Source: Escherichia coli (GTDB lineage: Bacteria; Pseudomonadota; Gammaproteobacteria; Enterobacterales; Enterobacteriaceae). Taken from it: a stretch of DNA of 64,000 nt. Both the position numbers and the translations under genes were made by a program. The stretch's first letter is position 1. Each line of letters starts with the position of its first letter. The notes under the pieces are model-generated. The model saw only the letters and a list, made by a program, of their open reading frames with translations. It made no database searches and was not told the origin of the DNA. The stretch lies in assembly GCF_041886205.1 (NCBI RefSeq), contig NZ_CP169029.1; one strand, 5' to 3'. Of this stretch, positions 778 through 34,618 are shown in pieces.

Positions 778-819
778 TCCTAACATCCTGAAATGTGCGG
801 GTTGCCCCGCACCAATTTG

Positions 820-1674: not shown

Positions 1675-1675
1675 T

Positions 1676-2293
1676 TTACACTTCCTCCGGATTAGCCAGA
1701 TAACCAGTGGTATCGCCGGTCGGGCGGCTGTTGGCGTTAGGTTTGATAACGATATTGGGTTTTGTGAAATGCGCGCGCGGCAGTGGCGCGACGGCAGCAA
1801 GAGTGCCGTGCTTCTGGCGCAGCTCTTCAATTGGACCGAACTCAAGTGCACGCAGCGGGCAGGATTCGACACATATGGGTTGTTTCCCCTCGGCGACGCG
1901 CGAATAACAACCATCGCACTTCGTCATGTGCCCTTTTTCAGCATTGTACTGTGGCGCGCCGTACGGACAAGCCATGTGGCAGTAGCGGCAGCCGATACAA
2001 ACATCTTCATCAACCACCACAAAGCCATCTTCACGCTTATGCATTGCGCCGCTGGGGCAGACTTTTGTACATGCGGGGTCATCGCAATGGTTACAGGAGA
2101 TGGAGAGATAATAAGCGAACACGTTCTGGTGCCAGACGCCATTATCTTCCTGCCAGTCGCCGCCAGCGTATTCATAAATACGGCGGAAACTGACTTCCGG
2201 GCCAAGATCTTTAAAATCTTTGCACGCCAGTTCGCAGGTTTTACAGCCAGTACAGCGGCTGGAATCGATAAAAAATCCATATTGTGTGGTCAT
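1676..2293 (-). CDS. ynfG: 4Fe-4S ferredoxin-type electron-transfer subunit (DmsB family)
   Basis: 205 aa with four Cys-rich Fe-S cluster motifs (CTGCKTCELAC, CNHCDDPAC, CIGCRYCHMAC, CDGC...C). Confidence 0.9.
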   Translation of the reverse strand: MTTQYGFFIDSSRCTGCKTCELACKDFKDLGPEVSFRRIYEYAGGDWQEDNGVWHQNVFAYYLSISCNHCDDPACTKVCPSGAMHKREDGFVVVDEDVCIGCRYCHMACPYGAPQYNAEKGHMTKCDGCYSRVAEGKQPICVESCPLRALEFGPIEELRQKHGTLAAVAPLPRAHFTKPNIVIKPNANSRPTGDTTGYLANPEEV

Positions 2294-2303
2294 GGGCTAC
2301 TCC

Positions 2304-4727
2304 TTAAACCTTTTCGATCTGGACAAGATTGCTGTGCGACGGGTTTCCCTTTGCCAGCGGTGAAGGGCGGTGAGAGGTCAGAATATTGATACTGCCGCCG
2401 TGATCGACCCGGTCACCAAACATATCCGCTTTAAGCCACGCACCTTGCCCGATGGCGGTAACGCCAGGCAGAATACGCGGAGTCACTTTTGCGGCAATCA
2501 GCATTTCTCCATTATTGTTAAATACCCGCACGGTATCGCCATGACGGATACCGCGTGCCTGAGCATCAATGGGGTTGATCCACACCTCTTGTGGGCAGGC
2601 CTGCTGTAACACATCAATATTGCCGTAGCTGGAGTGGGTACGCGCTTTGTAATGGAAGCCCGTTAACTGCAGTGGATAGGTTTTCCGCAGGGGATCGTCC
2701 CAGCCATCAAAACCTGGGGTATACGCAGGAAGGGGATGAATAATTTCATCTTTTTTCAATTCCCAGGTATCTGCAATCTTCGCCAGTCGTTCAGAATAAA
2801 TTTCGATTTTCCCCGAAGGTGTTTTCAACGGGTTTGCCTGTGGATCTTCACGGAATGCGCGGAAAGCGACGTAGTGTTCTTCCGGGCATTTTTTCTTAAA
2901 GATCCCGGTCGTTTTCATCTCCTCGTAGTCGGGCATCTCAGGGTTACGTTCCTTCGTTTTCGCATGGAGATATTTGATCCATTCATGCTGACTGCGACCT
3001 TCAGTAAAGGTTTGATAAACGTCTGGTCCTAAGCGTTTGGCGACTTCACTCAGCATCCAGTAGATGGGTTTGCGTTCAAATTTTGCTGAGGTTGCGGGTT
3101 GGGCGAGGATCACATAGCCCATATTCCCTGCAGATTCATGAGAGATAAGGTCTTCTTGCTCTGTTGGCATCAGGTCGGGCAACAGGATATCGCAATACTT
3201 AGCCGAGGCCGTCATGAAGTGGTCAATGCCAACAATCATCTCGCACTTGCTGTCATCCTGAAGCACCTCATGGGTGTGATTGATGTCGCCATGTTGATTG
3301 ATCAATGTGTTACTGGCGTAGCACCATAAAAACTTGATGGGGACATCCAGTTTTTCTTTTCCACGAACACCATCACGGGTCGCGGTCATTTCCGTACCAT
3401 GGTCGATGGCATCTGTCCATGTAAAGACGGAAATCTGCGTTTTAACAGGATTCTCGAGCATCGGGAACCATTCTACCCCCAGATCCCAGCTACCTTCGCG
3501 TACGCCTGAGTTGCCGCCGTTTATGCCGACGTTGCCGGTGAGAACGGAAAGCATGGCAATAGCGCGGGATGTTTGCTCGCCGTTGGAATGTCGTTGTGGC
3601 CCCCAACCCTGACAAATATAAGCAGGTTTTGCTGAACCGATCTCTCGTGCCAACTGGATAATTTTTTCTGCCGGGATGCTGGTGATTTTTGCTGCCCATT
3701 CCGGCGTTTTAGCTATGCCGTCAGGCCCTTCGCCCAGAATATAGGCTTTATAATGCGCGTTACGTGGTGCGTTGGCGGGCAGCGTTTTTTCATCGTAACC
3801 AACACAATATTTGTCGAGAAATGGCTGATCGACCATGTTTTCAGTAATCAGTACCCAGGCAATCGCACAGGCCAGTGCGCCATCGGTGCCAGGGCGAATG
3901 GGCAGCCATTCATCTTCACGCCCGGCAGCAGTGTCGTTATAACGTGGATCGATGACGATCATGCGTGCGTTTGAACGTTCGCGGGCTTGCTCGACGTAGT
4001 AAGTGACACCACCGCCGCTCATCCGCGTTTCTGCCGGGTTATTTCCGAACATAACGACCAGTTTCGTATTGGCGATATCATCCGGGCTGTTGCCATCATT
4101 GGCACCGAACATATAACTCATTGCGGCACTGATCTGTGCGGTACTGTAGCTGCCATAGCGACTGAGAAAACCACCGCAAGAGTTCATCAGACGGTACGGG
4201 ACGTTTGAGTTGGTGATGTTTCCGCCATCTACACCTGTTCCGTACAGGACATGTACAGCCTCATTGCCGTAATCTTTTAGGATCCGCCGAAGATTATCAC
4301 TGATGGTATCCAGGGCTTCGTCCCAACTTATCCGTTCAAATTTACCTTCACCGCGCTTGCCGACGCGCTTCATGGGATATTTCAACCTATCAGGATGATT
4401 CATCCGTCGGCGGATAGAGCGCCCGCGTAAACACGCGCGAACCTGATGATTACCGTAGACGTCGTCACCTGTCGTATCAGACTCCACCCAGTACACGGTG
4501 TCATCTTTCACATGCAAACGTAACAGACAGCGGCTCCCGCAGTTAACGGTGCAGGAACTCCAGACCGCTTTCTCTTCTACCGGAACCTCTGCCGCCCGAA
4601 CCATTTGGGAAAATGGCAGAGTGAAAGCACTGCTTGCCAGCGCGAGACTGCCAAGTGCGGAGGTTTTCATCAGACTTCTACGGCTGATTTCAGCCTTCAT
4701 GAGCGCCTCTGTGGTATGGATTTTCAT
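2304..4727 (-). CDS. ynfF: Tat-exported molybdopterin oxidoreductase catalytic subunit (DmsA paralogue)
   Basis: 807 aa; twin-arginine signal SRRSLMK; N-terminal Cys cluster CTVNCGSRC; large MopB-type protein. Confidence 0.9.
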   Translation of the reverse strand: MKIHTTEALMKAEISRRSLMKTSALGSLALASSAFTLPFSQMVRAAEVPVEEKAVWSSCTVNCGSRCLLRLHVKDDTVYWVESDTTGDDVYGNHQVRACLRGRSIRRRMNHPDRLKYPMKRVGKRGEGKFERISWDEALDTISDNLRRILKDYGNEAVHVLYGTGVDGGNITNSNVPYRLMNSCGGFLSRYGSYSTAQISAAMSYMFGANDGNSPDDIANTKLVVMFGNNPAETRMSGGGVTYYVEQARERSNARMIVIDPRYNDTAAGREDEWLPIRPGTDGALACAIAWVLITENMVDQPFLDKYCVGYDEKTLPANAPRNAHYKAYILGEGPDGIAKTPEWAAKITSIPAEKIIQLAREIGSAKPAYICQGWGPQRHSNGEQTSRAIAMLSVLTGNVGINGGNSGVREGSWDLGVEWFPMLENPVKTQISVFTWTDAIDHGTEMTATRDGVRGKEKLDVPIKFLWCYASNTLINQHGDINHTHEVLQDDSKCEMIVGIDHFMTASAKYCDILLPDLMPTEQEDLISHESAGNMGYVILAQPATSAKFERKPIYWMLSEVAKRLGPDVYQTFTEGRSQHEWIKYLHAKTKERNPEMPDYEEMKTTGIFKKKCPEEHYVAFRAFREDPQANPLKTPSGKIEIYSERLAKIADTWELKKDEIIHPLPAYTPGFDGWDDPLRKTYPLQLTGFHYKARTHSSYGNIDVLQQACPQEVWINPIDAQARGIRHGDTVRVFNNNGEMLIAAKVTPRILPGVTAIGQGAWLKADMFGDRVDHGGSINILTSHRPSPLAKGNPSHSNLVQIEKV

Positions 4728-4787
4728 CATTACTCACTTATTGCTTTTCAAACAAAATGTCATGCCAGAATTTATGGTTGTAGTGGG

Positions 4788-7214
4788 TTATATTTTTTCG
4801 ATCTCGACCAGATTAGTGTGCTGCGGGTTTCCCTTCGCCAGTGGTGAAGGGCGCAGAGTGGTTAGCGTATTCACACAGCCGCCATGGTCGATTTTATCGC
4901 CAGACATATTGGCCTCGTGCCAGGCTCCCTGGCCCATAGCGCTAACTCCAGGGAGAATACGTGGTGTCACTTTGGCTGGTAGCCGAACTTCGCCACGATG
5001 GTTAAACACCCGCACCATATCGCCGTTGGCAATCCCACGTTTCTGCGCATCTATAGGGTTGATCCACACCTCCTGACGGCAGGCTGCTTTCAGGACATCA
5101 ATGTTGCCGTAGGTCGAGTGAGTACGGGATTTGTAATGGAAACCAAACAGTTGCAGTGGGAAGGTTCTACGTTCAGGGGAGTCCCAGCCTTCAAAGGTAG
5201 AGGCATAAACTGGCAGTGGGCTTATCACTTCATCTTTTTCCAGTTCCCAGGTACGGGCAATTTCCGCCAGCTTGCTGGAATAAATTTCAATCTTACCGGA
5301 AGGTGTTTTAAGTGGATTTGCCTCGGGGTCGTCACGAAATGCTTTGTAGGCGACAAAATGACCATTGGGATCTTTACGCTTATAGATACCCATTTTTTTC
5401 AGTTCGTCGTAAGACGGTAACGCCGGATCTTTGGCAAGCATTTTGGCGTACAGATGTTGTAACCATTGTTCCTGCGTGCGACCTTCAGTGAACTTTTGAT
5501 AGACGTCAGGTCCAAGACGTTTCGCGACTTCACTCAGGATCCAGTAAATCGGTTTGCGTTCGAATTTTTCGCTGGTGACAGGCTGGAGGAAAATGAGATA
5601 TCCCATGTTACCGGCGTAGTCGTTAGGAATAATATCTTCCTGCTCAACGGTCATCAGGTCTGGCAGCAGAATGTCGGCATATTTTGCCGATGAGGTCATA
5701 AAGTTTTCGATGACCACAATCATTTCGCATTTCGATTCGTCCTGCAGAATTTCATGCGTTTTGTTGATGTCAGAATGCTGATTAACGAGGGTATTTCCCG
5801 CGTAGTTCCAGATGAACTTAATGGGCACATCCAGTTTATCTTTGCCCCGGACGCCGTCGCGGATTGCCGTCATTTTGGGGCCATGATCGATAGCATCTGT
5901 CCAGCTGAAGCAGGAAATTGACGTTTTGACCGGATTATCCAGCACCGGCAGGCGCTCTATGGTAATGGTATAGGTCGATTCACGCGCGCCACTATTTCCG
6001 CCGCTGATGCCGACATTGCCCGTCAAAATAGGTAACATAGCAATAGCGCGTGCAGTCAGTTCGCCGTTTGCCTGGCGTTGTGGCCCCCAGCCCTGGCAGA
6101 TATAAGCGGGTTTTGCTGTGCCAATTTCACGCGCCAGTTTGATGATACGGTCCTCCGGGATACCGGTAATTTGCGAAGCCCACTGCGGCGTTTTCGCTGT
6201 TTTATCGTCACCTTCACCAAGAATATAGGCTTTATAGTGACCATTTTTGGGTGCATCTGCGGGTAAGGTTTTTTCGTCATAGCCGACGCAGTATTTATCG
6301 AGAAAAGGTTGATCAACGAGATTTTCGTTAATCAATACCCAGGCAATACCCGCAACCAGCGCGGCATCGGTGCCCGGGCGAATAGGGAGCCATTCGTCTT
6401 CACGACCGGCAGCCGTATCGGTATATCGCGGATCGATAACAATCATTTTGGCGTTCGATTTCTCGCGCGCTTTTTCAAGAAGATAAGTGATGCCACCACC
6501 GCTCATGCGGGTTTCTGCCGGGTTGTTACCAAACATCACGACCAGCTTGCTGTTTTCAATATCCGTGGTGCTGTTGCCATCATTACTGCCGTAGGTGTAG
6601 GGCATGGCACAGGAAATTTGCGCAGTGCTGTAGGAGCCATACTGGTTGAGTGAACCGCCGTAGCAGTTCATCAGGCGTTTGACCGCCGAGGCTGATGGCG
6701 AAGAGCGGGTCATATTGCCGCCAACGATCCCCGAAGAGTACTGAATATATACAGCCTCATTGCCATATTGTTCGACGGTTTTCTTCAGGCTACTGGCGAT
6801 AGTATCCAGGGCTTCATCCCAGCTAATCCGTTCGAATTTGCCTTCGCCGCGTTTGCCCACGCGTTTCATTGGGTAATTCAAGCGATCGGGATGATTAATA
6901 CGCCGGCGGATGGAGCGACCGCGCAAACAGGCGCGTACCTGATGGTTGCCGTACTCATCGCTGCCGGTATTGTCAGTTTCCACCCAGGTCACTTCATTAT
7001 CTTTAACATGTAGACGAAGTGCACAGCGGCTACCACAGTTGACGGAACAGGCACCCCAGACCACTTTTTCGCGGGCCTGTTGTACCGATGCTGCTGCATT
7101 GCGCAGGGTAAACGGCAAAGAAAAACCGCCTGCAGCCAGCGCCAGAGAACCTATCGCGGTAGATTTAACGAGTGTTCTGCGGCTGATGCCCACCATTCGT
7201 TCATTTTTGGACAT
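4788..7214 (-). CDS. ynfE: Tat-exported molybdopterin oxidoreductase catalytic subunit (DmsA paralogue)
   Basis: 808 aa; twin-arginine signal SRRTLVK; CSVNCGSRC motif; colinear paralogue of ynfF directly upstream in the same operon. Confidence 0.9.
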   Translation of the reverse strand: MSKNERMVGISRRTLVKSTAIGSLALAAGGFSLPFTLRNAAASVQQAREKVVWGACSVNCGSRCALRLHVKDNEVTWVETDNTGSDEYGNHQVRACLRGRSIRRRINHPDRLNYPMKRVGKRGEGKFERISWDEALDTIASSLKKTVEQYGNEAVYIQYSSGIVGGNMTRSSPSASAVKRLMNCYGGSLNQYGSYSTAQISCAMPYTYGSNDGNSTTDIENSKLVVMFGNNPAETRMSGGGITYLLEKAREKSNAKMIVIDPRYTDTAAGREDEWLPIRPGTDAALVAGIAWVLINENLVDQPFLDKYCVGYDEKTLPADAPKNGHYKAYILGEGDDKTAKTPQWASQITGIPEDRIIKLAREIGTAKPAYICQGWGPQRQANGELTARAIAMLPILTGNVGISGGNSGARESTYTITIERLPVLDNPVKTSISCFSWTDAIDHGPKMTAIRDGVRGKDKLDVPIKFIWNYAGNTLVNQHSDINKTHEILQDESKCEMIVVIENFMTSSAKYADILLPDLMTVEQEDIIPNDYAGNMGYLIFLQPVTSEKFERKPIYWILSEVAKRLGPDVYQKFTEGRTQEQWLQHLYAKMLAKDPALPSYDELKKMGIYKRKDPNGHFVAYKAFRDDPEANPLKTPSGKIEIYSSKLAEIARTWELEKDEVISPLPVYASTFEGWDSPERRTFPLQLFGFHYKSRTHSTYGNIDVLKAACRQEVWINPIDAQKRGIANGDMVRVFNHRGEVRLPAKVTPRILPGVSAMGQGAWHEANMSGDKIDHGGCVNTLTTLRPSPLAKGNPQHTNLVEIEKI

Positions 7215-7313
7215 AACTCACTCCCTGTTCTTTATCGTTATATAAAAGTTTATATATTGAATATTTAGCGCGCTAACAATAGAGGGAGTCTACCCATTTT
7301 GGGTTAAGAATTA

Positions 7314-7327
7314 TTAATCCATATCAA
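7314..7327 (-). promoter_or_regulatory. candidate FNR site (TTGAT-N4-ATTAA on operon strand) about 105 bp upstream of ynfE
   Basis: Near-consensus FNR half-sites at the right distance for an anaerobic operon; only one half-site is perfect. Confidence 0.3.
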
Positions 7328-7412
7328 TAGAAGGGTATGAGTAATAAGGTGGGATTATGTTGTATGTTCAAATCGCCGGATTTGTCATATCCGGCGTTCA
7401 GTCGATAATGTG

Positions 7413-7718
7413 TTACTGCGGTTCGGCAGGCGCGCCATCCTGGCTAGACTGCGCGGGAGCAGAGACGTTACCGCTGGTGGTGCGGGTATAGAGAATTTTA
7501 TGCGTATCATTAGCGCAATGGCCGACGACCTGGGAATCAGGCTGATCAACCTGGTCATTGGGTACAATACTTAACGTGAAGCTGCTTTCGGGTACGCCAT
7601 TATTGATAATGCGCTGTGATATATCGCTCTGTATGCGCTCACAGGATCCCGGCGCGGCGAGTACCGCGGGTGAGGCGAGGGCGAGCAGAAGCGCGGCACA
7701 GCAGGTTGAGAGTTTCAT
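7413..7718 (-). CDS. ynfD: small secreted protein YnfD
   Basis: Track ORF 115 aa; start placed at MKLSTCCAALLLALASPAVLAAP (signal peptide), giving 101 aa. Confidence 0.7.
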   Translation of the reverse strand: MKLSTCCAALLLALASPAVLAAPGSCERIQSDISQRIINNGVPESSFTLSIVPNDQVDQPDSQVVGHCANDTHKILYTRTTSGNVSAPAQSSQDGAPAEPQ

Positions 7719-7825
7719 CATAAGCTCCTTACGCGAAGATAACTTCTTTAAGCATAGCATTTAACGTGTAAAGTACTGTATTTGCTACTATGATTGAGAA
7801 TCATCTCTACTCTCTGGTGACTGTT

Positions 7826-8536
7826 GTGAAATACAAATTACTACCATGCTTACTCGCGATATTCCTCACAGGATGTGACCGCACAGAGGTAACACTTTCA
7901 TTTACCCCTGAGATGGCCAGTTTCTCTAATGAATTCGATTTTGATCCGCTGCGTGGTCCGGTAAAAGATTTCACTCAGACATTAATGGATGAGCAAGGTG
8001 AAGTGACGAAACGTGTTTCTGGGACTTTGTCGGAAGAAGGCTGTTTTGATTCACTCGAATTACTGGATCTGGAAAATAATACCGTGGTCGCTCTGGTACT
8101 GGACGCCAATTATTACCGTGATGCCGAGACGCTGGAGAAGAGAGTACGTTTACAGGGAAAATGCCAGCTAGCAGAATTACCTTCTGCCGGGGTGAGTTGG
8201 GAAACCGATGATAATGGCTTCGTGATTAAAGCCAGCAGCAAACAAATGCAGATGGAATATCGCTATGATGATCAGGGTTATCCGCTGGGTAAAACCACGA
8301 AAAGTAACGACAAAACATTATCTGTCAGCGCCACGCCATCAACGGATCCGATCAAAAAATTAGATTACACAGCGGTTACTTTACTGAATAATCAACGGGT
8401 TGGTAATGTAAAACAGAGCTGTGAATATGACAGTCACGCTAATCCGGTGGACTGTCAGCTAATCATTGTTGATGAAGGAGTAAAACCCGCCGTCGAACGG
8501 GTTTACACCATCAAAAATACGATCGATTATTATTAA
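7826..8536 (+). CDS. ynfC: lipoprotein YnfC
   Basis: Lipobox LTGC near N-terminus; GTG at 7826 gives 236 aa; the ATG at 7790 is an alternative start. Confidence 0.7.
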   Translation: MKYKLLPCLLAIFLTGCDRTEVTLSFTPEMASFSNEFDFDPLRGPVKDFTQTLMDEQGEVTKRVSGTLSEEGCFDSLELLDLENNTVVALVLDANYYRDAETLEKRVRLQGKCQLAELPSAGVSWETDDNGFVIKASSKQMQMEYRYDDQGYPLGKTTKSNDKTLSVSATPSTDPIKKLDYTAVTLLNNQRVGNVKQSCEYDSHANPVDCQLIIVDEGVKPAVERVYTIKNTIDYY

Positions 8537-8538
8537 TG

Positions 8539-9099
8539 CTATTGTGCGGTCGGCTTCAGGAGAGTCTGACCCGGTGTTTTGTGCTCTGCCAGATACTGAT
8601 GCTGGAATATACACATGCGAATGGCATTACGATATTGACCATTAATAAAGAACTCGTGCATCAATTCACCTTCAACCGAAAAGCCAAGCTTGCGGTAAAT
8701 GTGAATCGCTTTTTCATTCTCTTTATCAACGATCAGATACAGCTTATAGAGATTGAGAACGGTGAAGCCATAGTCCATTGCTAATTTGGCGGCACGGGTT
8801 GCCAGACCTTTCCCCTGATACTCCGGGGAGATAATTATCTGAAATTCTGCGCGGCGATGAACATGGTTAATTTCCACCAGCTCCACCAGACCGGCTTTTT
8901 CGCCGTCACATTCCACCACAAAGCGCCGTTCGCTCTGATCGTGAATATGCTTATCATACAGATCAGAGAGTTCAACAAAGGCTTCGTAGGGTTCCTCAAA
9001 CCAGTAACGCATCACACTGGCGTTATTGTCGAGTTGATGTACATAGCGTAAATCTTCACGCTCCAGCGGGCGTAGCTTAACACTGTGGGCGCTTGGCAT
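8539..9099 (-). CDS. speG: spermidine N1-acetyltransferase
   Basis: 186 aa GNAT-family protein ([26 protein letters not shown]...), recognised as SpeG. Confidence 0.9.
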
Positions 9100-9133
9100 A
9101 ACGTGTCCTTACATTCCTTAAATCAATAACAGG

Positions 9134-9475
9134 TTAGGGGGTAATAACGCGGCCAGTTCGACGGTCCAGGCAGCGCAAAGTATTTGGCTCCCAGTAGGCA
9201 TTGATGTTGGCGCTTTGCTCGCATTTATCGCGGTTATCAAAAGCGGCGTCGGCTTTATCCCACTCTTTTTCAGTGCGTTTATTCACTTTCTGGCGCAGAT
9301 TGCGCGTGTCATTCCATTGCTCTTTTTCCATAGCGGCGTGCTGGCGACTTTGTGCACTGTCGCCAGACTCAATCACCAGTTTGTTAGTTTCGGCATGAAC
9401 AGTTGTGCTCAATGCCAGTGCGCAAGGCAGCAGAAAAGCGAGCAGGCCGATTCGTTTGCTGAGAGTGATTTTCAT
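9134..9475 (-). CDS. ynfB: secreted/membrane protein YnfB
   Basis: 113 aa with N-terminal signal peptide; position between speG and ynfA. Confidence 0.7.
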
Positions 9476-9609
9476 AATTCATTCCCTGTATGAATGATTA
9501 AAGGTGATTCTACACCATCCACTGCGAACGCAAAACGTACCAGGTGGGTGTTTATATTGATGATATTATGTCGCCCTATAACTATACATGATGTCAATAA
9601 GTGACAAAG

Positions 9610-9936
9610 ATGATTAAAACAACGTTACTATTTTTTGCTACTGCGCTGTGTGAAATTATTGGATGCTTTCTGCCCTGGTTGTGGTTAAAACGAAACGCCA
9701 GTATCTGGCTGTTGCTTCCGGCGGGGATTTCACTGGCGCTGTTTGTCTGGTTGTTAACGTTGCATCCAGCGGCGAGTGGGCGTGTTTACGCGGCTTATGG
9801 TGGCGTTTATGTCTGCACGGCGTTGATGTGGCTGCGCGTTGTGGATGGCGTGAAACTGACTCTTTATGACTGGACGGGTGCGTTGATTGCGCTTTGCGGC
9901 ATGTTGATCATTGTTGCGGGCTGGGGGCGCACGTAG
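9610..9936 (+). CDS. ynfA: small inner-membrane protein YnfA
   Basis: 108 aa from MIKTTLLFF...; four predicted TM segments. Confidence 0.75.
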
Positions 9937-10043
9937 GAACATAAATCCATTTTATCAATAAGATAAGAGGAAGTGTCAGCTGACAAAAGGTATTCTATTT
10001 CATCTTTTGTCAACCATTCACAGCGCAAATATACGCTTTTTTT

Positions 10044-10051
10044 GTGATCAC
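10044..10051. promoter_or_regulatory. palindrome GTGATCAC about 90 bp upstream of rspA; candidate GntR-family (YdfH) operator
   Basis: Perfect 8-bp palindrome of GT-N4-AC type in the rspA promoter region; the GntR-family gene ydfH lies nearby. Confidence 0.25.
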
Positions 10052-10140
10052 TCCGGCTTTTTTCAATCTTCATACTTGTATGGTAGTAGCTCAGATGCGT
10101 AGATTTCATGCATCACGACAAGCGATGCAAGGAATCGAAC

Positions 10141-11355
10141 ATGAAGATCGTAAAGGCTGAAGTTTTTGTTACCTGTCCGGGGCGTAATTTCGTCACATTA
10201 AAAATCACCACTGAGGACGGTATTACGGGCCTTGGGGATGCCACCCTCAATGGACGTGAGCTTTCCGTGGCCTCTTATTTGCAGGATCACCTTTGTCCGC
10301 AGCTTATTGGTCGCGATGCGCACCGTATCGAAGATATCTGGCAGTTTTTCTATAAAGGTGCTTACTGGCGTCGCGGTCCGGTTACGATGTCGGCCATTTC
10401 AGCGGTTGATATGGCGCTGTGGGATATTAAAGCCAAAGCTGCCAACATGCCGCTTTACCAGTTACTCGGCGGCGCGTCTCGTGAAGGGGTGATGGTTTAT
10501 TGCCATACCACCGGTCACAGTATTGATGAAGCTCTGGATGATTATGCCCGTCATCAGGAGCTGGGATTCAAAGCCATCCGCGTGCAGTGCGGAATCCCTG
10601 GTATGAAAACCACCTACGGCATGTCGAAAGGTAAAGGTCTGGCTTATGAACCCGCAACCAAAGGACAGTGGCCGGAAGAGCAGCTGTGGTCGACGGAGAA
10701 ATACCTCGATTTCATGCCGAAATTGTTTGACGCGGTACGTAACAAGTTTGGTTTTAATGAACATTTGCTGCATGACATGCACCATCGCTTAACGCCTATT
10801 GAAGCGGCGCGCTTTGGTAAAAGCATTGAAGATTATCGCATGTTCTGGATGGAAGACCCGACGCCTGCGGAAAACCAGGAATGCTTCCGTCTCATTCGCC
10901 AACATACCGTCACACCCATCGCAGTGGGTGAAGTCTTCAACAGCATCTGGGACTGCAAACAACTGATTGAAGAGCAACTCATCGATTATATCCGCACCAC
11001 GCTGACCCATGCAGGCGGAATTACCGGTATGCGCCGGATTGCCGATTTTGCTTCGCTGTATCAGGTACGTACTGGCTCACACGGTCCTTCCGATTTGTCA
11101 CCAGTCTGCATGGCTGCGGCGCTGCACTTTGATCTGTGGGTCCCCAATTTCGGTGTCCAGGAATACATGGGTTATTCCGAACAAATGCTCGAAGTCTTCC
11201 CGCACAACTGGACTTTCGATAACGGCTATATGCATCCGGGAGACAAACCGGGTCTTGGTATCGAATTCGATGAAAAGCTGGCGGCGAAATATCCCTATGA
11301 ACCTGCTTATCTACCAGTCGCACGTCTGGAAGATGGCACGCTGTGGAACTGGTAA
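10141..11355 (+). CDS. rspA: enolase-superfamily mannonate dehydratase / starvation-sensing protein
   Basis: 404 aa from [24 protein letters not shown]...; RBS AAGGAA upstream. Confidence 0.85.
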
Positions 11356-11366
11356 GGAGTAAGATA

Positions 11367-12386
11367 ATGAAAAGCATATTAATTGAAAAACCGAATCAAC
11401 TGGCGATTGTCGAACGTGAAATACCCACCCCGTCAGCGGGTGAAGTACGAGTAAAAGTGAAACTTGCCGGAATTTGTGGTTCAGATAGCCATATTTATCG
11501 TGGGCATAATCCTTTTGCGAAATATCCGCGCGTCATTGGTCATGAATTCTTTGGCGTCATTGATGCAGTGGGTGAAGGCGTGGAAAGCGCCAGAGTCGGT
11601 GAACGTGTTGCTGTCGATCCGGTGGTCAGCTGTGGGCATTGCTATCCGTGCTCTATAGGTAAACCGAACGTTTGTACGACACTGGCTGTATTAGGTGTGC
11701 ACGCTGACGGTGGTTTCAGTGAATATGCCGTGGTTCCGGCAAAAAATGCGTGGAAAATTCCTGAAGCAGTGGCCGATCAATATGCGGTAATGATCGAACC
11801 TTTTACCATTGCGGCTAACGTAACCGGACATGGTCAACCGACTGAAAATGATACCGTTCTGGTTTATGGTGCCGGTCCAATCGGCCTGACGATCGTTCAG
11901 GTATTAAAAGGCGTCTATAACGTTAAAAATGTGATTGTTGCCGATCGCATTGATGAACGACTGGAAAAAGCGAAAGAGAGCGGGGCTGACTGGGCGATTA
12001 ATAACAGCCAGACACCGCTTGGCGAGATTTTCACTGAAAAAGACATCAAGCCGACATTAATTATCGATGCGGCTTGTCATCCTTCTATCCTGAAAGAGGC
12101 CGTAACGCTGGCTTCTCCAGCGGCACGTATTGTATTGATGGGCTTCTCCAGTGAACCGTCTGAAGTGATTCAGCAAGGAATTACCGGAAAAGAACTCTCT
12201 ATTTTCTCTTCACGCTTAAATGCAAATAAATTCCCGGTCGTTATCGACTGGTTAAGTAAAGGGTTAATTAAACCAGAAAAATTAATTACCCATACGTTTG
12301 ATTTCCAGCATGTTGCTGATGCCATTAGTTTATTTGAACAGGATCAAAAGCATTGCTGCAAAGTCTTACTCACTTTTTCTGAATAA
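11367..12386 (+). CDS. rspB: Zn-dependent alcohol dehydrogenase-family oxidoreductase
   Basis: 339 aa from MKSILIEKPNQL...; GHEFFG and GAGPIG motifs; RBS GGTAAGGAG. Confidence 0.85.
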   Translation: MKSILIEKPNQLAIVEREIPTPSAGEVRVKVKLAGICGSDSHIYRGHNPFAKYPRVIGHEFFGVIDAVGEGVESARVGERVAVDPVVSCGHCYPCSIGKPNVCTTLAVLGVHADGGFSEYAVVPAKNAWKIPEAVADQYAVMIEPFTIAANVTGHGQPTENDTVLVYGAGPIGLTIVQVLKGVYNVKNVIVADRIDERLEKAKESGADWAINNSQTPLGEIFTEKDIKPTLIIDAACHPSILKEAVTLASPAARIVLMGFSSEPSEVIQQGITGKELSIFSSRLNANKFPVVIDWLSKGLIKPEKLITHTFDFQHVADAISLFEQDQKHCCKVLLTFSE

Positions 12387-14140: not shown

Positions 14141-15989
14141 CGATTTCTTTATCTCTTACATCAGACGAGCGCCGGTTGCAGAATACCAGTCACAACCGGC
14201 GACAGTTGAACATTAAGAATCAGCCTGACTCGGGATCAGTTTTTGCCAGATAGCTGAAACGTATTTTGCCTGGTAACGGGCGTCATCAAGTGCATTATGG
14301 CGCTCACCTTCGAATGGAATAGCCGTTCTGGCATCGAAGTCTATGGCTTTCCCCAGCTCAACGATTGTGCGTACATCGCGATCGTTGTAGTAACGCCACG
14401 GGCAGGGGATCCCCTGCCGTTCGTATGAACGGCGCAAAATCGTGTTGTCGAAGTTGGCTCCATTTCCCCAGACATGAACAAAAAATTCACCGGAGTTTTC
14501 GTCGATAAATTCCCGCAATTGTAACAGTGCATCATCTAACGGGATTTCATCGGTCATAATGGCAGATTGCGCTTCGCGTGATTGTTTAAGCCACCATTTA
14601 ATGGTGTCCCGATCAATGACTCCGCCAGCAGTTTCCAGATCGATAGTCTTACTAAATTCCGGTCCCATATCTCCGGTTTGCGGATCGAAAAATATTGCAC
14701 CTATTGAGATAATCGGGGCATCGGGATTTTTTCCCATGGTTTCAAGGTCGATCATCAGATGAATCCCCGCTCTGCTGGTGGATGTGAGATTATGATGACC
14801 GTTTGCCTTAATTAAGGGATCTGACGCCTCGCCAGTTTCACTATCGCTGGCATGATGCTGATTGCCGCCAGTGTTCTCCTTGTGCTGATGCGCAGTGCCT
14901 TCTATTTCCTCCGGATCATTTTCCTGAACTTCAGGCTGATTCTCTCCATCGAATATTTCCTGGTATGTTGCGTCACCCATCACCGCACCACAATCAGGGC
15001 AGTTGCCGCCACCGCTCTGACCGCAGGCGGTGCAGATCTTTTCCGGTTCCTGTTGCACTACTGGTTCAGGTTGTTTCGTTTCTGGCTCGTTTTGTTGCAT
15101 ATTTGGGCTGTTTTGTTCCGCTTTCTGGTCGTTCTGTTCCGTTTCTTGCTGGTTCTGGTTCACAGAATCGCGGGTCTGGATCCCCTTAATCCATTTCGGA
15201 TCATTCGGGTCGCTAATCCCTTCAACAAATTCACCACGTGATACTGCAAGCAGTTCATCGGCGTCAGGCTGGCTGATATTGGCTGCCTGCATAATTTTGT
15301 TTACTTCGTCAGCGGTAACTTTTACTGACCCTGGTTGTGCGGTCGTGTCAGATGCACCAGTATTTTGTTGTGAACCTGAGTATGTACCGTTTTTGCGGGC
15401 GAAATATTCTTCTTTCGTGATTTCAGTAGCCCCAGCAGACAGCGCCTTATCCAGACCAGAAAGTTTATTTGCGCGACCGTATTTTTCGCCATCCTTGTCG
15501 GTGAAGAGGAAGTAGAACGGCCCCTCACGTTCTACAGATGGTTCGACTTCCACTTTGCATTCGGTTTTTTCGTTGTCTGGAATTGCCGTTTCCACTGCAT
15601 CAGTTTCTGGTACTGGCGACGAGAGAGTATCAGTTGCGCTCTGATTTGTTCCTTCATCTTCAAACACGCCCTTTGTAGTCAGGTATTCAGTAATGTATTT
15701 GTTCAGTGCCACAGGGTCTTTGTGAATGTCGATCGGACGTTCACGGACAAGGCCAAAAATAGTCTGGCGGTCGTAGCGAAGGGCATCAGGCTGTTTGCGC
15801 ATTGATGCCGAGATACGCTTCCAGTCTTCGCGGTCGTTGTCGATAACTTCATTTTTTGCCCAGCGATGGATGCTGCCGTCAATGTTTCCGGCATCCACAT
15901 CACCAGGCCAGAGAGCGTAGGCCAGTTCGTCATCCTGAACCGCCCCGGGAATCCTGGAGACTAAACTTCCTGAGAAAGAGGTAAACAGG

Positions 15990-16316
15990 ATGACTAAAAA
16001 TACTCGTTTTTCCCCCGAAGTCCGTCAACGGGCAGTCCGTATGGTTCTGGAAAGTCAGAGCGAATATGACTCACAATGGGCGACAATTTGTTCCATTGCT
16101 CCAAAGATTGGCTGTACGCCGGAGACTCTGCGTGTCTGGGTTCGCCAGCATGAGCGGGATACCGGGGGCGGTGATGGAGGGCTCACCACCGCTGAACGTC
16201 AGCGTCTGAAAGAGCTGGAACGTGAAAATCGTGAACTGCGCCGCAGTAACGATATCCTTCGCCAGGCTTCCGCTTATTTTGCGAAGGCGGAGTTCGACCG
16301 CCTCTGGAAAAAATGA
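15990..16316 (+). CDS. IS3-family transposase OrfA (HTH)
   Basis: 108 aa [21 protein letters not shown]...; leucine-zipper-like C-terminus. Confidence 0.85.
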
Positions 16317-17203
16317 TGCCACTGCTGGATAAGCTGCGTGAGCAGTACGGGGTCGGACCGCTATGCAGCGAACTGCATATTGCCCCGTCAACGTATTACC
16401 ACTGTCAGCAACAGCGACATCATCCGGATAAACGCAGTGCCCGTGCGCAGCGCGATGACTGGCTGAAGAAAGAGATACAGCGCGTATACGATGAAAATCA
16501 CAAGGTATACGGTGTGCGTAAAGTCTGGCGTCAGTTGTTACGGGAAGGTATCAGAGTGGCCAGATGCACTGTGGCACGTCTCATGGCGGTTATGGGACTT
16601 GCCGGTGTTCTCCGGGGTAAAAAGGTCCGTACGACCATCAGCCGGAAAGCCGTTGCCGCAGGCGACCGCGTAAACCGTCAGTTCGTGGCAGAACGACCTG
16701 ACCAGCTGTGGGTGGCTGATTTTACTTACGTCAGCACATGGCGGGGCTTCGTCTATGTGGCGTTCATCATTGATGTGTTTGCCGGATACATCGTGGGGTG
16801 GCGGGTCTCATCGTCCATGGAAACGACATTCGTGCTGGATGCACTGGAGCAGGCGTTATGGGCCCGTCGACCGTCCGGCACGGTCCATCACAGTGATAAA
16901 GGTTCTCAGTATGTATCGCTGGCCTACACACAGCGGCTTAAGGAAGCCGGATTACTGGCATCAACAGGAAGTACAGGCGACTCGTATGACAACGCGATGG
17001 CGGAGAGCATCAATGGTCTTTACAAAGCGGAGGTAATACACCGTAAGAGCTGGAAAAACCGTGCAGAAGTGGAACTGGCCACACTCACGTGGGTGGACTG
17101 GTATAACAATCGACGATTGCTGGAAAGGCTGGGCCATACTCCTCCGGCAGAAGCAGAAAAAGCTTATTATGCTTCCATCGGAAACGATGATCTGGCAGCC
17201 TGA
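16313..17203 (+). CDS. IS3-family transposase OrfB (DDE integrase core)
   Basis: 296 aa with rve-type DDE domain; overlaps orfA in -1 frame. Confidence 0.85.
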
Positions 17204-18017
17204 GTTCACAGATAAAACACTCTCCAGGAAACCCGGGGCGGTTCATCCAGTGTTTTCCATGTCTGCTTGTATTCGCGATGAATGGCAGCAATGACCGGGT
17301 TGATTTTTCCTGTTGAATTTTCAGTGTGCTGTTGATTGGCTCTGGCACGGGCGAGATCAACAACAGACGTGTATTTTCCGGCTTCCTTGCGTTCACCTTC
17401 GCGACGTTTTTTCCAGATGCGCATCTCTGCCTGAATTTCGGGCCATTTGGCACCAGGCTTACATTTATGCTTAACCCACCCGATGGCATGCAGCTTAAGC
17501 TCCGGATACATAGCGTTAACTTCTGGCATTTTCATCAACGCTTCAACGATATGGCCGTCGAATGTTGCCATGTCTTCCTGCAACAATTCCTGTGCGCTAA
17601 TCACCATATCAACAGTGATGTTTTCACATGTGTCGAACTTAACCATGACAGCGTTCTGTACTTCAGGGGCTAGGTTGTCAAAAGTGACGTTCATCGGATC
17701 GGATTCAGTCTCGACCGGGACAAAGGAAGCAGACGCCTCATCCCAGCGGTTTTCCTGCATATATTCAGCATCCCAGGAATCGAGGGCAGGGCGGGGTATA
17801 CCGGGTTTATCCTCGCAAACAAGAAATTTATAAGCGCAGTCCTGAGCAGCCGGATAATGTTCCAGGAATTGCCAGTGAAATTTTGCGCGGGCGCGACGTT
17901 CATCACCGGCTTCAATGGCAGTGGCTACAGTGAGACGAACTTCGCCGTGCGCTTTCGTGTTGTGTGCCTGCTTTTAACCACGTCAGGCGAGGTGGTATCC
18001 TTAAAATCACCACAGTT

Positions 18018-19047: not shown

Positions 19048-19467
19048 TTAAGAGGCTTTTTGTTTTTTCTTTCGTGCTAACTCTTCGTAAATTGCATTGT
19101 ACTTCTGTTTTTTCTCTTCAAGAGTTTTTAAAAGTTCATCTGTCTCACTGTCAGGGAGCTCGTCCAGAAGGTCAATGATGATTTTTTGTCTTGGATTTAA
19201 CTCCTGATAGAAACGTACCTGTCCACTTTCTTCTGTATCCTCTCCCAAAAGATAGGTTGGTGTTGTTCCTATTAGTGTTGCTAATTCCCTTAATTTCTCC
19301 CGGCGAGGAATTGTTTCGCCATTAAACCATTTGCTAACCGCTTTTGGTGTTAATTTCATTCGACGGGCAATTTCTGCCTGCCTTCCATGTTGTTCATAAC
19401 CAGCGTTTTCACAGGCTAGCGCAAGCCTACTGGCGAACTCTTTACGCGCTTTATCTTCATGAACCAT
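19048..19467 (-). CDS. prophage repressor, XRE-family HTH (RacR/DicA-like)
   Basis: 139 aa; HTH QAEIARRMKLTPKAVSKWFNGETIP; divergent from a Cro-like gene. Confidence 0.7.
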   Translation of the reverse strand: MVHEDKARKEFASRLALACENAGYEQHGRQAEIARRMKLTPKAVSKWFNGETIPRREKLRELATLIGTTPTYLLGEDTEESGQVRFYQELNPRQKIIIDLLDELPDSETDELLKTLEEKKQKYNAIYEELARKKKQKAS

Positions 19468-20288: not shown

Positions 20289-21365
20289 GTGAGTATGGCT
20301 AACGCCTGGCTCAGATTATGGCATGACATGCCAAATGACCCTAAGTGGCGAACAATTGCCAGGGTGTCAGGGCAGCCAATTGCAACAGTGATGGCAGTGT
20401 ATATCCACCTCTTGGTGAGCGCGTCACGAAATGTCACGCGAGGTCACATTGATGTCACGACAGAAGATTTGGCAAGTGCGCTCGACGTGACAGAAGAGGT
20501 AATTGATTCAATTTTGCAGACGATGCAGGGGCGGGTACTTGATGGTGATTTAATCACTGGATGGGAAAAACGCCAGGTGCTTAAAGAGGACAACGGCAAT
20601 ATTTCGCAAACCGCAAAATCTCCTGCAGAGCGCAAGAGGGCGCAGCGAGAGAGGGAAAGAAAGCGGGAACAAAATGGCGATTGTCACGGCGCGTCACGAA
20701 ATGTCACGCACATGTCACGACGAGTCACGACAGATAAAGATACAGATAAAGATACAGATCAAGAAGATCAAAACACTATGGTCCATGGCGTAAAAAACGC
20801 CACGAACCAGGCAGGGGATGTTCAGACCGTCAATCTTGGTCAGCCAGCAGGCACGACACCGGAAGCCGATTCAGCGTATGCGCTGAAAGCCGATTCGGGC
20901 GCTGTGCAGCAGGTGATGACCGCAAGGCCGGAGCAATCACACCAACTGCAGCAGCCCGAAGCCGATTCCGCCATTCAGCGGGAAGCCGATCGGGTAGTCC
21001 CGGAAAACACCGGGCAGTCTGTGGGACGAGTGGATTATCCGGATGTGTTCGAACAGGTCTGGCGGGAGTACCCGTTGCGTGCCGGAGCAAACCCGAAGAA
21101 ATCCGCTTTCAGTGCCTGGAAGGCCAGATTACGCGAGGGGGTGCCACCAGAGGCCATGCTGGATGGCGTGAGGCGTTACGCAAGATACTTGGCGGCTACC
21201 GGGAAAACGGGAACGGAATTTGTTCAGCGAGCGACGACGTTTTTTGGACCGGACCGGAATTTTGAGAACTCCTGGTTGCTCCCGGTAAGCGGCACGAACA
21301 ACCAGCGTTGTGTGAATCATATTTCTGAACCGGATAACGAAATTCCGCCGGGCTTCAGGGGGTAA
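20289..21365 (+). CDS. phage replication initiator / replisome organiser, O-like
   Basis: 358 aa; N-terminal WLRLWHDMPNDPKW motif; the coding sequence contains iterons; GTG start with RBS. Confidence 0.6.
   Translation: MSMANAWLRLWHDMPNDPKWRTIARVSGQPIATVMAVYIHLLVSASRNVTRGHIDVTTEDLASALDVTEEVIDSILQTMQGRVLDGDLITGWEKRQVLKEDNGNISQTAKSPAERKRAQRERERKREQNGDCHGASRNVTHMSRRVTTDKDTDKDTDQEDQNTMVHGVKNATNQAGDVQTVNLGQPAGTTPEADSAYALKADSGAVQQVMTARPEQSHQLQQPEADSAIQREADRVVPENTGQSVGRVDYPDVFEQVWREYPLRAGANPKKSAFSAWKARLREGVPPEAMLDGVRRYARYLAATGKTGTEFVQRATTFFGPDRNFENSWLLPVSGTNNQRCVNHISEPDNEIPPGFRG
20423..20765 (+). repeat. putative replication origin: nine GTCAC(G/A) iterons in two clusters plus an AT-rich tandem repeat
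   Basis: Iterons at 20423, 20433, 20443, 20454 and 20683, 20693, 20703, 20714, 20724 (10-11 bp spacing); then GATACAGATAAA x2.5. Confidence 0.5.
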
Positions 21366-21405
21366 GTGTTAATTTCTGGTCATGAGGTAATTTTCAGGAG
21401 GGCTT

Positions 21406-21828
21406 GTGGCAAAAGTTTTTACACAAGAAGAGCGGGAAAAAATTAAAGGGCAGGTTGTTGAACTCGTACGCCAGAGTGGGCGCGAGACGTTAAGACAACT
21501 GGAAACTAAAACTGGGGCAACAAAATATATGATGAACGTTCTGGCCAGAGAGCTGGTTGCCAGTGGCGATGTATACAACTCTGGTTACGGGTTATTCCCG
21601 TCTGAACAGGCGCGTAAGGACTGGCAAAATGCCCGTAAAAAGCTCTCAAGGGCAAAGCTGAAGAAACCATCTGCGGTTGATCCGGACCTTATCTGGTCAT
21701 TACCTGATGGAGAAATACGTCGTTACGACAGGCGTCATAATATGATTTGTACTGAGTGTCGTAAAAGCGAAGTTATGCAGCGCATATTGTCGTTTTATCA
21801 GGGGGATGTTCGGTATTTATTGAAGTGA
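21406..21828 (+). CDS. hypothetical phage protein
   Basis: 140 aa; GTG start 6 nt after AGGAGG; contains C-x2-C. Confidence 0.45.
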   Translation: MAKVFTQEEREKIKGQVVELVRQSGRETLRQLETKTGATKYMMNVLARELVASGDVYNSGYGLFPSEQARKDWQNARKKLSRAKLKKPSAVDPDLIWSLPDGEIRRYDRRHNMICTECRKSEVMQRILSFYQGDVRYLLK

Positions 21829-22223
21829 CGAGATTAAAGTGCATTAGTTCAGATGCAAATTGACATTTTGTGGCACAGGGTAGAGCTAGCGTGGTTGTCC
21901 GCTTTGTGCCAACAGCGGACATTATGGAAGGTCAGAGTTAAAGATTAAAATGGGATGCTGTGTGTTTTCTCCAGGTTTTGCTCTATACCTTTCGGGATAC
22001 TCCACCGACAGAATACGAAAATCAACATTATCAACGGCTCGAAGTGTCTAGATTATCCATGGCAATTCATGGGAAATCCCATCCAACGGCTTATGCTTCA
22101 TGTTGCTTTTTGAGATCGCTTCTAGCATAGCTCCACTCAATAATGTTGTCGGGTCGTTGCTGATCGAAAAGGATACGGGATTCAATACCATTACCTAAAA
22201 AGCTGGTACCGGAACTCGGGCTG

Positions 22224-23228
22224 GTGGTCGTTAAGCCGGGCCGTGAATCCATGCCGGTATTCCACAATACCCGGGTACTGGTGGAGCCGGAACCGAAAAG
22301 CATGCGTAATCTGCCGTCCGGGGTCGTTCCTGCCGTTCGCCAGCCGCTGGTGGAAGACAAAACATTGCTGCCGTTTTTCAGTAACGCACGGGTAATTCGT
22401 GCTGCTGGTGGTGCTGGTGCATTGTCTGACTGGCTGTTGCGCCATATTAAATCCTGCCAGTGGCCACACGGCGATTATCATCACAGCGAAACCGTTATTC
22501 ACCGATATGGTACCGGCGCAATGGTGTTGTGCTGGCACTGCGACAACCAGCTGCGTGACCAGACATCCGAATCACTCGAGCAACTTGCTCATCAAAACCT
22601 GTCAGCATGGATGATTGACGTCATCGGTCACGCAATAAGCGGTACGCAGGAGCGTGAATTATCTCTGGCTGAATTATCCTGGTGGGCGGTCCGCAATCAG
22701 CTGGCGGACGCGCTACCGGAAGCGGTATTACGTCGCTCGCTGGGATTACCAGCGGAAAAAATCTGCTCGGTGTACCGCGAAAGCGACATCGTACCGGGAG
22801 AGCAGACCGCCACCAGCATATTGAAACAGCGCACAAAAAATCTTGCACCGTTGCCTCACGCCCACCAGCAACAAAACCCATCACAGGAAAAGACGGTGGT
22901 AAGCATCACCGTTGATCCAGAGTCTCCGGAATCTTTCATGAAGCTGCCTAAACGTCACCGGTGGGTTAAGGAGAAATACACACGCTGGGTTAAGACACAG
23001 CCGTGTGCTTGCTGCGGTATGCCAGCCGACGATCCGCATCATCTGATTGGTCACGGGCAGGGCGGAATGGGAACCAAAGCACATGATCTCTTTGTTTTGC
23101 CTTTGTGCAGAAAGCATCACGACGAGTTGCATACGGATACCGTGGCATTTGAAGAGAAGTATGGCTCCCAACTGGAGCTGATTTTTCGATTTATCGATCG
23201 CGCGCTGGCAATTGGTGTGCTGGCCTAA
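22224..23228 (+). CDS. DUF968-type protein with C-terminal HNH-like motif (YdfU/NinG-like)
   Basis: 334 aa; C-terminus [21 protein letters not shown]...[10 protein letters not shown]; directly upstream of Q. Confidence 0.6.
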
Positions 23229-23245
23229 TTTTGTGGAGTAAGTTG

Positions 23246-23623
23246 ATGCGTGATATTCAGATGGTTCTTGAGCGTTGGGGGGCATGGGCGGCTAATAATC
23301 ATGAAGATGTGACCTGGTCGTCCATTGCCGCCGGTTTTAAGGGATTAATTCCTTCAAAAGTAAGATCTCGTCCGCAATGCTGTGACGATGACGCGATGAT
23401 CATTTGTGAATGTATGGCTCGCCTGAAAAAAAACAACAGCGATTTACATGATTTATTGGTGGACTATTATGTCGGCGGCATGACTTTTATGGCGCTTGCA
23501 CATAAGCATGGGCGATCTGATTGTTGGGTTGGCAGGATGCTCCAGAAAGCTGAGGGCGTAGTGGAGGGCATGCTGATGGTGTTGGATCTCCGATTGGAGA
23601 TGGATGCTGATTGTTCGAAATAA
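23246..23623 (+). CDS. quuQ: late-gene antiterminator Q
   Basis: 125 aa [24 protein letters not shown]...; recognised from memory as near-identical to the Qin antiterminator. Confidence 0.75.
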
Positions 23624-28320: not shown

Positions 28321-28683
28321 GGTAATATTAAATCGGAACATTTACATCGCGGAATGTAAAATTTAAATAAAAAGGACTCTTCCATGAGCCAAAATTCCTG
28401 AAATCTTAAGGGTAAGATAAAAGGTCTTAATCAGAATGACACGTTATTATTAATAAATAAAGCTATTCTTTCATTGCTGTGTTTTTCTTTACAAAAGTAA
28501 TCCTTGCTATGGGTGGTTAATCATGCGTTAATGGTGTTCTGGTTTGTTACAAATTTATCTGAAGCAGTCATTGTTATAATTTTATTATTTGTACCTCTTG
28601 AGATTTCCTTGTTGGTTTTTCTCTCTGATATTTTTTTTCGGACCATTCTGCCCAAGGGCTAATTTCTTCAAAAGGTAATAATT

Positions 28684-28896
28684 ATGTCTAACAAAATGAC
28701 TGGTTTAGTGAAATGGTTTAACCCTGAAAAAGGTTTTGGTTTCATCACGCCGAAAGATGGCAGCAAAGATGTGTTTGTCCATTTCTCAGCAATTCAGAGC
28801 AACGATTTCAAAACATTAACTGAGAATCAGGAAGTTGAATTTGGTATTGAGAACGGACCTAAAGGTCCTGCCGCTGTTCATGTAGTGGCGCTTTGA
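28684..28896 (+). CDS. cspI: cold-shock protein (CspA family)
   Basis: 70 aa [23 protein letters not shown]...; long upstream leader typical of csp genes. Confidence 0.9.
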
Positions 28897-29167
28897 GGTA
28901 GACAATATTACAAACCATATTCACTTTAGATGCCCGTGTTGTCATGGTTCCCAGTATAGAACATCATCTTTTGATGTTTCTGACATGAATCCTTTCGGGG
29001 CAAAATGTATCTTTTGTAAATCAATGATGATTACATTTGATAATATTTCACAATACTTAAATGCCAGCCGTCTGTCGTTGGATTTAAAAAAGTGAAAATG
29101 AAGGCTCCTTCGGGAGTTTTTTTGCTTGGTATCTATTCGATGGATACTCACATACTACGGTAACATC

Positions 29168-34043: not shown

Positions 34044-34618
34044 TGGCATTCAGAATGAGTGAACAACCACAGACCATAAAAATTTATAATCTGCTGGCCG
34101 GAACTAATGAATTTATTGGTGAAGGTGACGCATATATTCCGCCTCATACAGGTCTGCCAGCAAACAGTACCGATATTGCACCGCCAGATATTCCGGCAGG
34201 CTTCGTGGCTGTTTTCAACAGTGATGAGGCATCGTGGCATCTCGTTGAAGATCATCGGGGAAAAACCGTCTATGACGTGGCTTCCGGCGACGCGTTATTT
34301 ATTTCTGAACTCGGTCCGTTACCGGAAAATGTTACCTGGTTATCGCCGGAAGGGGAGTTTCAGAAGTGGAACGGCACAGCCTGGGTGAAGGATACGGAAG
34401 CAGAAAAACTGTTCCGGATCCGGGAGGCGGAAGAAACAAAAAACAACCTGATGCAGGTAGCCAGTGAGCATATTGCGCCGCTTCAGGATGCTGCAGATCT
34501 GGAAATTGCAACGGAGGAAGAAATCTCGTTGCTGGAAGCATGGAAAAAGTATCGGGTATTGCTGAACCGTGTTGATACGTCAACTGCACAGGATATTGAA
34601 TGGCCAGCACTGCCGTAG
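34043..34618 (+). CDS. tail fibre assembly protein Tfa
   Basis: 191 aa; start overlaps the stf stop; typical Tfa N-terminus ([21 protein letters not shown]). Confidence 0.8.

Follow-up and report, generated by a model that had tools for sequence, protein, structure and literature searches.

The closest described counterparts of the locus analysed here are the Qin and Rac prophages of Escherichia coli K-12, which share with it the dicA/dicC-like immunity, YdaT, DUF977, hokD, ydfU and Q gene families. K-12 Qin lies at the same chromosomal site beside rspB as the prophage in our window (the whole 64,000-nucleotide stretch of E. coli DNA that was analysed), and all three are decaying lambdoid prophages with internal deletions. 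Their breakpoints differ, however. In K-12 Rac, the rzpR lysis-gene remnant comes straight after ydaW and the annotation places neither cargo nor hok, ydfU or Q between the two, and K-12 Qin has a ydfU that we take to be intact, whereas the window prophage keeps its replication module and has lost its cargo, hokD and the start of ydfU.

Three further kinds of described system bear on this locus. Microhomology-mediated, RecA-independent prophage deletions leave one copy of a short repeat and truncate genes on both sides, as was found here, and the deletions that accompany prophage domestication remove toxic genes, as here hokD and AbiH, and dicB and ydfD in a second deletion. The event in the window fits a generic microhomology deletion wholly, but the recurrence of GGTA/TA endpoints in relatives is not predicted by it. 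P2 and P4 prophages contain hotspots of anti-phage systems (PMC9122126). Like these, the slot after the DUF977 gene has a fixed position, conserved phage flanks and very different cargo; unlike them, it belongs to a lambdoid Qin-like family, lies between the replication genes and hok/ydfU/Q, and is nearly empty in the window. Finally, IS loss with flanking deletion at 2–4-bp microhomologies has been described by an IEE/copy-out strand-switch model (bioRxiv 10.1101/2023.06.07.543989). The window prophage resembles those cases in its short junction microhomologies and in carrying both an IS3-family remnant and an IS629-like copy, but no IS abuts the junction and an IS-occupied allele was not found at the recurrent sites, which leaves this model as a candidate mechanism only.

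Positions 1–12000 of the window belong to the E. coli chromosome (ynfEFH, rspAB), with identity to sequenced strains reaching 100%. A lambdoid prophage starts at about 12.9 kb, adjoining rspB, which is the Qin site. Its genes around the stretch under study were as follows:

19048-19467, minus strand: cI-like repressor, then a cro-like gene and a YdaT-family gene
20289-21365: replisome organiser, upstream of the DUF977 gene
right of the gap, in order: DUF968 ORF (GTG 22224 to 23228), Q antiterminator, lipocalin, YbgA-family gene

The DUF977 gene stops at 21828 and the DUF968 frame has its first start codon, a GTG, at 22224, which leaves 395 nt between the two. An earlier note on this DNA had described a stretch of about this length without a convincing ORF, and this gap is real: the ORFs within it are 27–56 aa long, have no Pfam matches and are not conserved (in a related locus, L003, the plus-strand ATG of the 31-aa ORF is followed immediately by TGA). 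The length of the gap is by itself statistically unremarkable, and its meaning comes from comparison with relatives. The DUF968 frame had been thought to be open from about 22131, which was mistaken, as a TAG at 22128-22130 is followed by ten codons, including an ATG at 22143-22145, and then by an in-frame TGA at 22161-22163; the frame is open only from 22164. From there to 22224 it contains no ATG, GTG or TTG, so that the reported lack of an ATG holds for this part of the frame but not for the earlier short open run. Similarly, likening the position to the nin region of lambdoid phages was a fair analogy, but the expectation of dense packing that came with it does not apply, as the slot holds variable cargo that is here mostly deleted. 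The gap and its borders were resolved into the following features:

21406..21828, plus strand: DUF977 gene, 140 aa (Pfam PF06163, E=6.7e-29; identical E. coli loci carry the annotation DUF977 family protein); it closes the replication module and borders the gap on its left
21829..21923, no strand: conserved noncoding segment of ~95 nt, following the DUF977 stop; left border of the variable cargo slot
21924..21992, no strand: spacer specific to the AbiH-type cargo island, 100% identical to ECCWS199
21993..22069, plus strand: IS3-family right-end remnant, with the last ~13 transposase codons and the terminal inverted repeat ending ...GGCAATTCA
22091..22208, minus strand: 3' tail of a 463-aa gene (stop and last 38 codons), 100% identical to the ECCWS199 WP_112911107 CDS
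22203..22208, no strand: deletion junction with the 6-bp microhomology CTGGTA, from base-by-base comparison with the ECCWS199 locus (L002)
22203..23228, plus strand: 5'-truncated ydfU (DUF968/HNH-like), from codon 9, by comparison with intact genes
22220..22227, plus strand: Chi sequence GCTGGTGG, overlapping GTG 22224; first of five Chi sites in ydfU

The AbiH-island spacer as a whole extends over 21924-22090, including the IS3-family end, and among complete E. coli genomes its first part (21924..21992) occurs only in the 66 with the entire 380-bp left part. The 77-bp IS remnant shows 87–90% identity to the 3' ends of IS3-family transposases in many E. coli records. Its frame translation, ..PTEYENQHYQRLE, matches ..SPTEYENQYYQRLGSV and the following stop in another remnant (L011), and similarity stops at the IS end. 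Both a transposase C-terminus and a terminal inverted repeat are present at 21993-22069, placing the remnant in the IS3 family; a complete element (both ends, orfAB frameshift) is absent there, only the right end being found, and the remnant is distinct from the complete IS at 15936-17242. The WP_112911107 CDS occupies L002 11004-12395 on the minus strand, and its match ends exactly at window position 22208. In intact relatives this 463-aa gene adjoins the AbiH gene; its remainder is deleted in the window. The full 463-aa protein gave no Pfam or PADLOC match, and it may be an uncharacterised partner of the AbiH-type defence system.

A megablast search with positions 21700-22350 against 5426 complete E. 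coli genomes returned thousands of matches, and none of the 5426 spans the whole query or carries the junction. The left 509 nt of the query (to 22208) matched many genomes at 100%, and the right part, from 22203, matched ydfU at 100%. In ECCWS199 a distance of 3.8 kb separates the left and right matches: identity is 100% for window 21700-22208, up to record position 2321120, and again for 22203 onward, from 2324887. The two prophages are collinear and 99.7–99.9% identical on both flanks, with 3772 bp missing from the window. The hexamer CTGGTA stands at both ends of the missing segment (L002 11116-11121 and 14888-14893) and occurs once in the window, at 22203-22208. The missing segment contains most of the minus-strand 463-aa gene, AbiH (Pfam E=7.8e-69; PADLOC AbiH), hokD, a 92-aa ORF and the first 24 nt of ydfU. 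Both flanks of the junction are truncated genes, the 463-aa gene being reduced to its last 38 codons and ydfU lacking codons 1–8.

Given that both flanking genes are truncated, and that the lost start of ydfU is conserved in prophages with unrelated cargo, the difference must stem from a deletion in this lineage. The 395-nt stretch is very probably the scar of this 3.8-kb deletion, without a function of its own. Intact relatives would represent the earlier arrangement, in which the conserved noncoding segment and then the cargo slot come after the replication module (replisome organiser, DUF977) and before hokD, a small ORF, ydfU and Q. The cargo in this lineage would have been the minus-strand 463-aa gene and AbiH, with an old IS3-family end adjoining. 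Illegitimate recombination between the two CTGGTA hexamers would then have removed the 3772 bp and, with most of the 463-aa gene, AbiH, hokD and the 92-aa ORF, the ribosome-binding site and codons 1–8 of ydfU. This would have brought the conserved segment, the IS remnant and the antisense gene tail to abut ydfU from codon 9. The mechanism was presumably RecA-independent, by microhomology-mediated slippage or end joining.

The earlier note had also suggested that the stretch could hold a promoter or a small RNA, and a small regulatory RNA gene, or a promoter for the downstream genes, would account for the conservation of its first ~95 nt across many prophages. This segment (21829-21923) is 78–99% identical in >3000 E. 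coli genomes with unrelated genes downstream, and is also found in phages Evi, mEp460 and Tritos. It contains a near-invariant TTGACA (21860-21865) and two inverted repeats, GTCCGCT/AGCGGAC (21897-21920) and GGCACAG/TTGTGCC. Its identity in most comparisons was 80–91%, against 61–82% at the 4-fold-degenerate sites of the DUF977 gene; conservation above these sites indicates either constraint or recombinational homogenisation. The searches nonetheless gave no support to an RNA or a promoter. Neither a permissive Rfam scan of 20500-23500 (E<=10) nor a gathering-threshold scan of the whole window placed a family in the gap, and ARAGORN detected no tRNA or tmRNA, despite the loosely tRNA-like look of GGCACAGGGTAGAGC...TTGTGCCA. 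Consensus scans found no sigma-70-like promoter or intrinsic terminator in 21829-22223, and the spacing between TTGACA and any -10-like hexamer covers a range of 8 nt across the variants. When 35 distinct variants of the conserved segment were aligned, the RNAalifold consensus energy was only -2.35 kcal/mol. Covariation in the 7-bp hairpin GTCCGCT/AGCGGAC and in the long-range helix GGCACAG/TTGTGCC was no greater than in shuffled controls (284/500 and 29/500 shuffles matched the observed score for the two helices), and a pseudoknot combining them showed no covariation among the 35 variants. Fold z-scores were -0.6 and -1.0 on the two strands of the conserved segment and +1.3 and +0.8 in the rest of the gap, values no different from shuffles. 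The other 285 nt consist of island remnant, IS end and antisense gene tail. We regard an RNA gene or promoter as improbable. The first ~95 nt of the gap may have a function of a kind that sequence analysis does not reveal.

Less probable still is an assembly artefact or chimera at the junction. None of the complete E. coli genomes searched has the junction, and its 6-bp overlap is short. GTDB representatives, JGI metagenomes and IMG/VR lack the 46-mer across the junction, and no phage record was found to span it when the region was searched by BLAST. The allele was found only through an exact-sequence look-up of its 334-aa protein product. By this route the same junction was recovered, 100% identical over 6 kb, in the Logan assemblies SRR13000375 and SRR14140442, and again in SRR17192472, where it is accompanied by two further deletions. 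That three or more read sets (L147, L149, L152), each assembled separately, share the identical junction and its flanks over 6 kb argues against an artefact, as does the fact that De Bruijn assemblers make no joins on 6-bp overlaps. As the junction is present in three independent read-set assemblies, we conclude that it is a real allele; its absence from the collections searched makes it a rare one.

It could also be proposed that the window represents the ancestral state and that relatives such as ECCWS199 gained a 3.8-kb insertion, the slot after DUF977 being a known site of cargo turnover. An insertion is, however, unable to create the missing halves of two genes: of the 463-aa gene the window has no more than the final 38 codons, and the start missing from its ydfU is conserved under entirely different cargo. 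We consider that direction of change extremely unlikely, and a deletion in the lineage of the window explains both truncations.

The truncation of ydfU was assessed against intact genes, which encode 349–351 aa and start at a GTG 45 nt (15 codons) upstream of GTG 22224, behind GGAGG. This native start has the form GGAGG-N5-GTG, and GGAGGTAAC-GTG together with codons 1–8 is absent from the window. Intact genes begin ctggaGGAGGtaacGTG, and the N-terminus, VRVLLRPV..., is conserved in four diverse loci, viable phages included (ECCWS199, another E. coli prophage, and phages Evi and mEp460). Among the IMG/VR copies of this ydfU allele, 31/32 have the native start. The window ydfU is kept from Leu9, and GTG 22224 corresponds to Val16 (codon 16 of the intact 349-aa gene). 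As the first usable start, this GTG gives a product of 334 aa, and no good Shine-Dalgarno sequence was seen before it (cggaactcgggctg). The DUF968 domain itself is complete (PF06147, E=5.7e-77, residues 145-331, profile positions 1-171 of 171), and PF16784 (HNHc_6) scored 24.3 bits on the ydfU product, under the cut-off of 26.6. Five Chi sites lie within ydfU between 22220 and 22869 (plus strand 22220, 22346 and 22404; minus strand 22810 and 22862), and the whole window has 21, against 1.7 expected from shuffles; we mention the combination of an HNH-like nuclease domain with five Chi sites as a coincidence only.

Comparison with homologues shows that ydfU in the window is 5'-truncated, which probably makes it a pseudogene, or at best a gene translated weakly from GTG16. 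The suspicion that the DUF968 gene was 5'-degraded was therefore right, homology to intact genes starting at codon 9. The opposite reading, in which GTG 22224 is the true conserved start and the sequence upstream is ordinary spacer, can draw on its being the first start codon of the open frame and on gene callers predicting exactly the 334-aa product on many contigs, but it is almost certainly wrong, as homologue alignment puts the start 15 codons upstream behind GGAGG with a conserved N-terminus, nearly all IMG/VR copies of the allele (31/32) have that upstream start, and every inspected 334-aa contig has a rearrangement breakpoint within codons 1–10.

With the gap read as a deletion scar, its conserved first ~95 nt can be considered in their own right. 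Downstream of the DUF977 stop, sequences diverge completely from ~95 nt onward. The cargo found in the slot comprises QueH, SIR2, KwaB-like, SMEK, DUF4209, an AAA_13 ATPase, an acetyltransferase, a methyltransferase, and AbiH with its 463-aa partner (loci compared: L002-L010, L012-L014, L144). Because different prophages carry differing cargo directly downstream of it, the segment is the left border of a cargo/defence hotspot in Qin-like lambdoid prophages, between the replication genes and hokD/ydfU/Q. Module-boundary 'linker' sequences have long been discussed for lambdoid phages, and the segment is best read as such a linker, being a short conserved noncoding sequence at the edge of an exchanged module. 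In L003, the 5' arm of one segment variant is combined with the 3' arm of the variant associated with QueH cargo, a single example that fits crossovers inside the segment. Descriptions of the slot and the segment were not found in the papers searched on DUF977, ydfU and lambdoid hotspots.

Comparison of the ydfU junction with other truncated copies showed that deletion endpoints recur within this gene. Junctions were drawn from records of the 334-aa and 308-aa truncated products, which occur in many further contexts, and both parents were rebuilt for each junction (loci L137-L152, L157-L161 and L167). This protein look-up biases detection to endpoints in the first ~120 nt of ydfU, and introduces no bias to TA or to repeated use of one nucleotide. 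The independent deletions thus reconstructed in Qin-like prophages, seven in number, had seven left ends and three right-hand sites, all of the form GGTA^Y with a TA crossover. The three sites were:

site 1: CTGGTA^CCGG, ydfU nt 29-30, four events
site 2: GGGTA^CTGG, ydfU nt 97-98, two events
site 3: CCGGTA^TTCC, ydfU nt 79-80, one event

The seven events, with their left ends and overlaps, were:

event 1: left end in the AbiH-partner gene (this window), joined to site 1, overlap CTGGTA
event 2: left end in ydaT, GGGATA^AGCG, joined to site 1, overlap TA
event 3: left end upstream of dicB, CCGGATAC^AG, joined to site 1, overlap TAC
event 4: left end in ydaT, GAGGCTA^TCCGG, joined to site 1, overlap TA
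event 5: left end in host rspA, GGTTTA^TTGC, joined to site 2, overlap TA
event 6: left end in the attL region, CGCTTA^ACTG, joined to site 2, overlap TA
event 7: left end in a replication gene, GCCTA^ACTG, joined to site 3, overlap TA

An eighth deletion, one of the two extra ones in SRR17192472, also crosses over at TA, where GGCTA^A meets GGGTTA^T. A 16-nt quasi-palindrome, GTTCTGG-TA-CCGGAAC (GTTCTGGTACCGGAAC), is centred on site 1, and another contains both site 2 and site 3. The DNA hairpins at these quasi-palindromes are weak (-2.9 and -4.9 kcal/mol, z about -0.4). We tentatively put forward the possibility, which we hold to be somewhat less than probable, that the 5' end of ydfU is a sequence-specific hotspot of illegitimate recombination, at which a TA-specific break or strand-transfer activity, and not random microhomology, truncates prophages. 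Candidates for such an activity are a transposase or recombinase acting on pseudo-sites, IS loss with a TA/GTA target duplication, and hairpin processing at GTTCTGG-TA-CCGGAAC.

Four more specific causes were considered. Gyrase cleaves with a 4-nt stagger, and its quinolone-stabilised scission occurs before G (PMC6379681). Exchange of gyrase subunits at ↓GTAC↑ would fit sites 1 and 2, but 5/8 junctions are mosaic within the putative 4-nt overhang, which places the crossover in the central TA and does not suit a simple gyrase exchange. Under the Chi orientation rule for RecBCD (PMC12315714), the ydfU Chi sites near the endpoints would be read by RecBCD coming from the right, and would protect the deleted rather than the retained side. 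Integrase recombination at secondary sites could account for no more than one event, that with its left end in attL. For IS loss with flanking deletion as the cause of the endpoints, no IS-occupied allele was found.

The prophage has decayed elsewhere too. A second microhomology deletion relative to ECCWS199, of 935 bp at the 8-bp repeat TACAGTGA (17926-17933), removes the 5' end of the exonuclease gene, ydfD and dicB, and the DicF RNA was not detected anywhere in the window. The same prophage exonuclease gene carries an inserted IS629/IS1203-like IS3-family element of 1307 bp (15936-17242), which has orfA/orfB and an ALIL frameshift pseudoknot at 16271-16387; this element is absent from the otherwise identical assembly L149. 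Other Rfam matches above the gathering threshold in the window were the STnc560 Hfq-binding RNA, IS009 and a cspA-type thermoregulator 5' UTR (45980-46193, 34386-34584 and 28538-28923). In L147 (Logan SRR17192472_21), which has the same ydfU junction, further deletions lie at window positions 17884/20145 and 20301/21590, with microhomologies ATTTT and TA, and the immunity and replication genes have been lost. This sister lineage shows stepwise decay.

The deletion scar is ordinary prophage decay, through which this lineage lost an AbiH-type abortive-infection island and the HokD toxin. For annotation, ydfU in the window should be flagged as 5'-truncated, with its N-terminus and ribosome-binding site missing, and the 395 bp upstream are not worth searching for a gene. 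The slot after DUF977 is a rich and clearly bounded cargo/defence hotspot, which may deserve separate study, and the reuse of GGTA/TA endpoints hints at a specific mechanism of prophage decay, which may likewise merit a study of its own.
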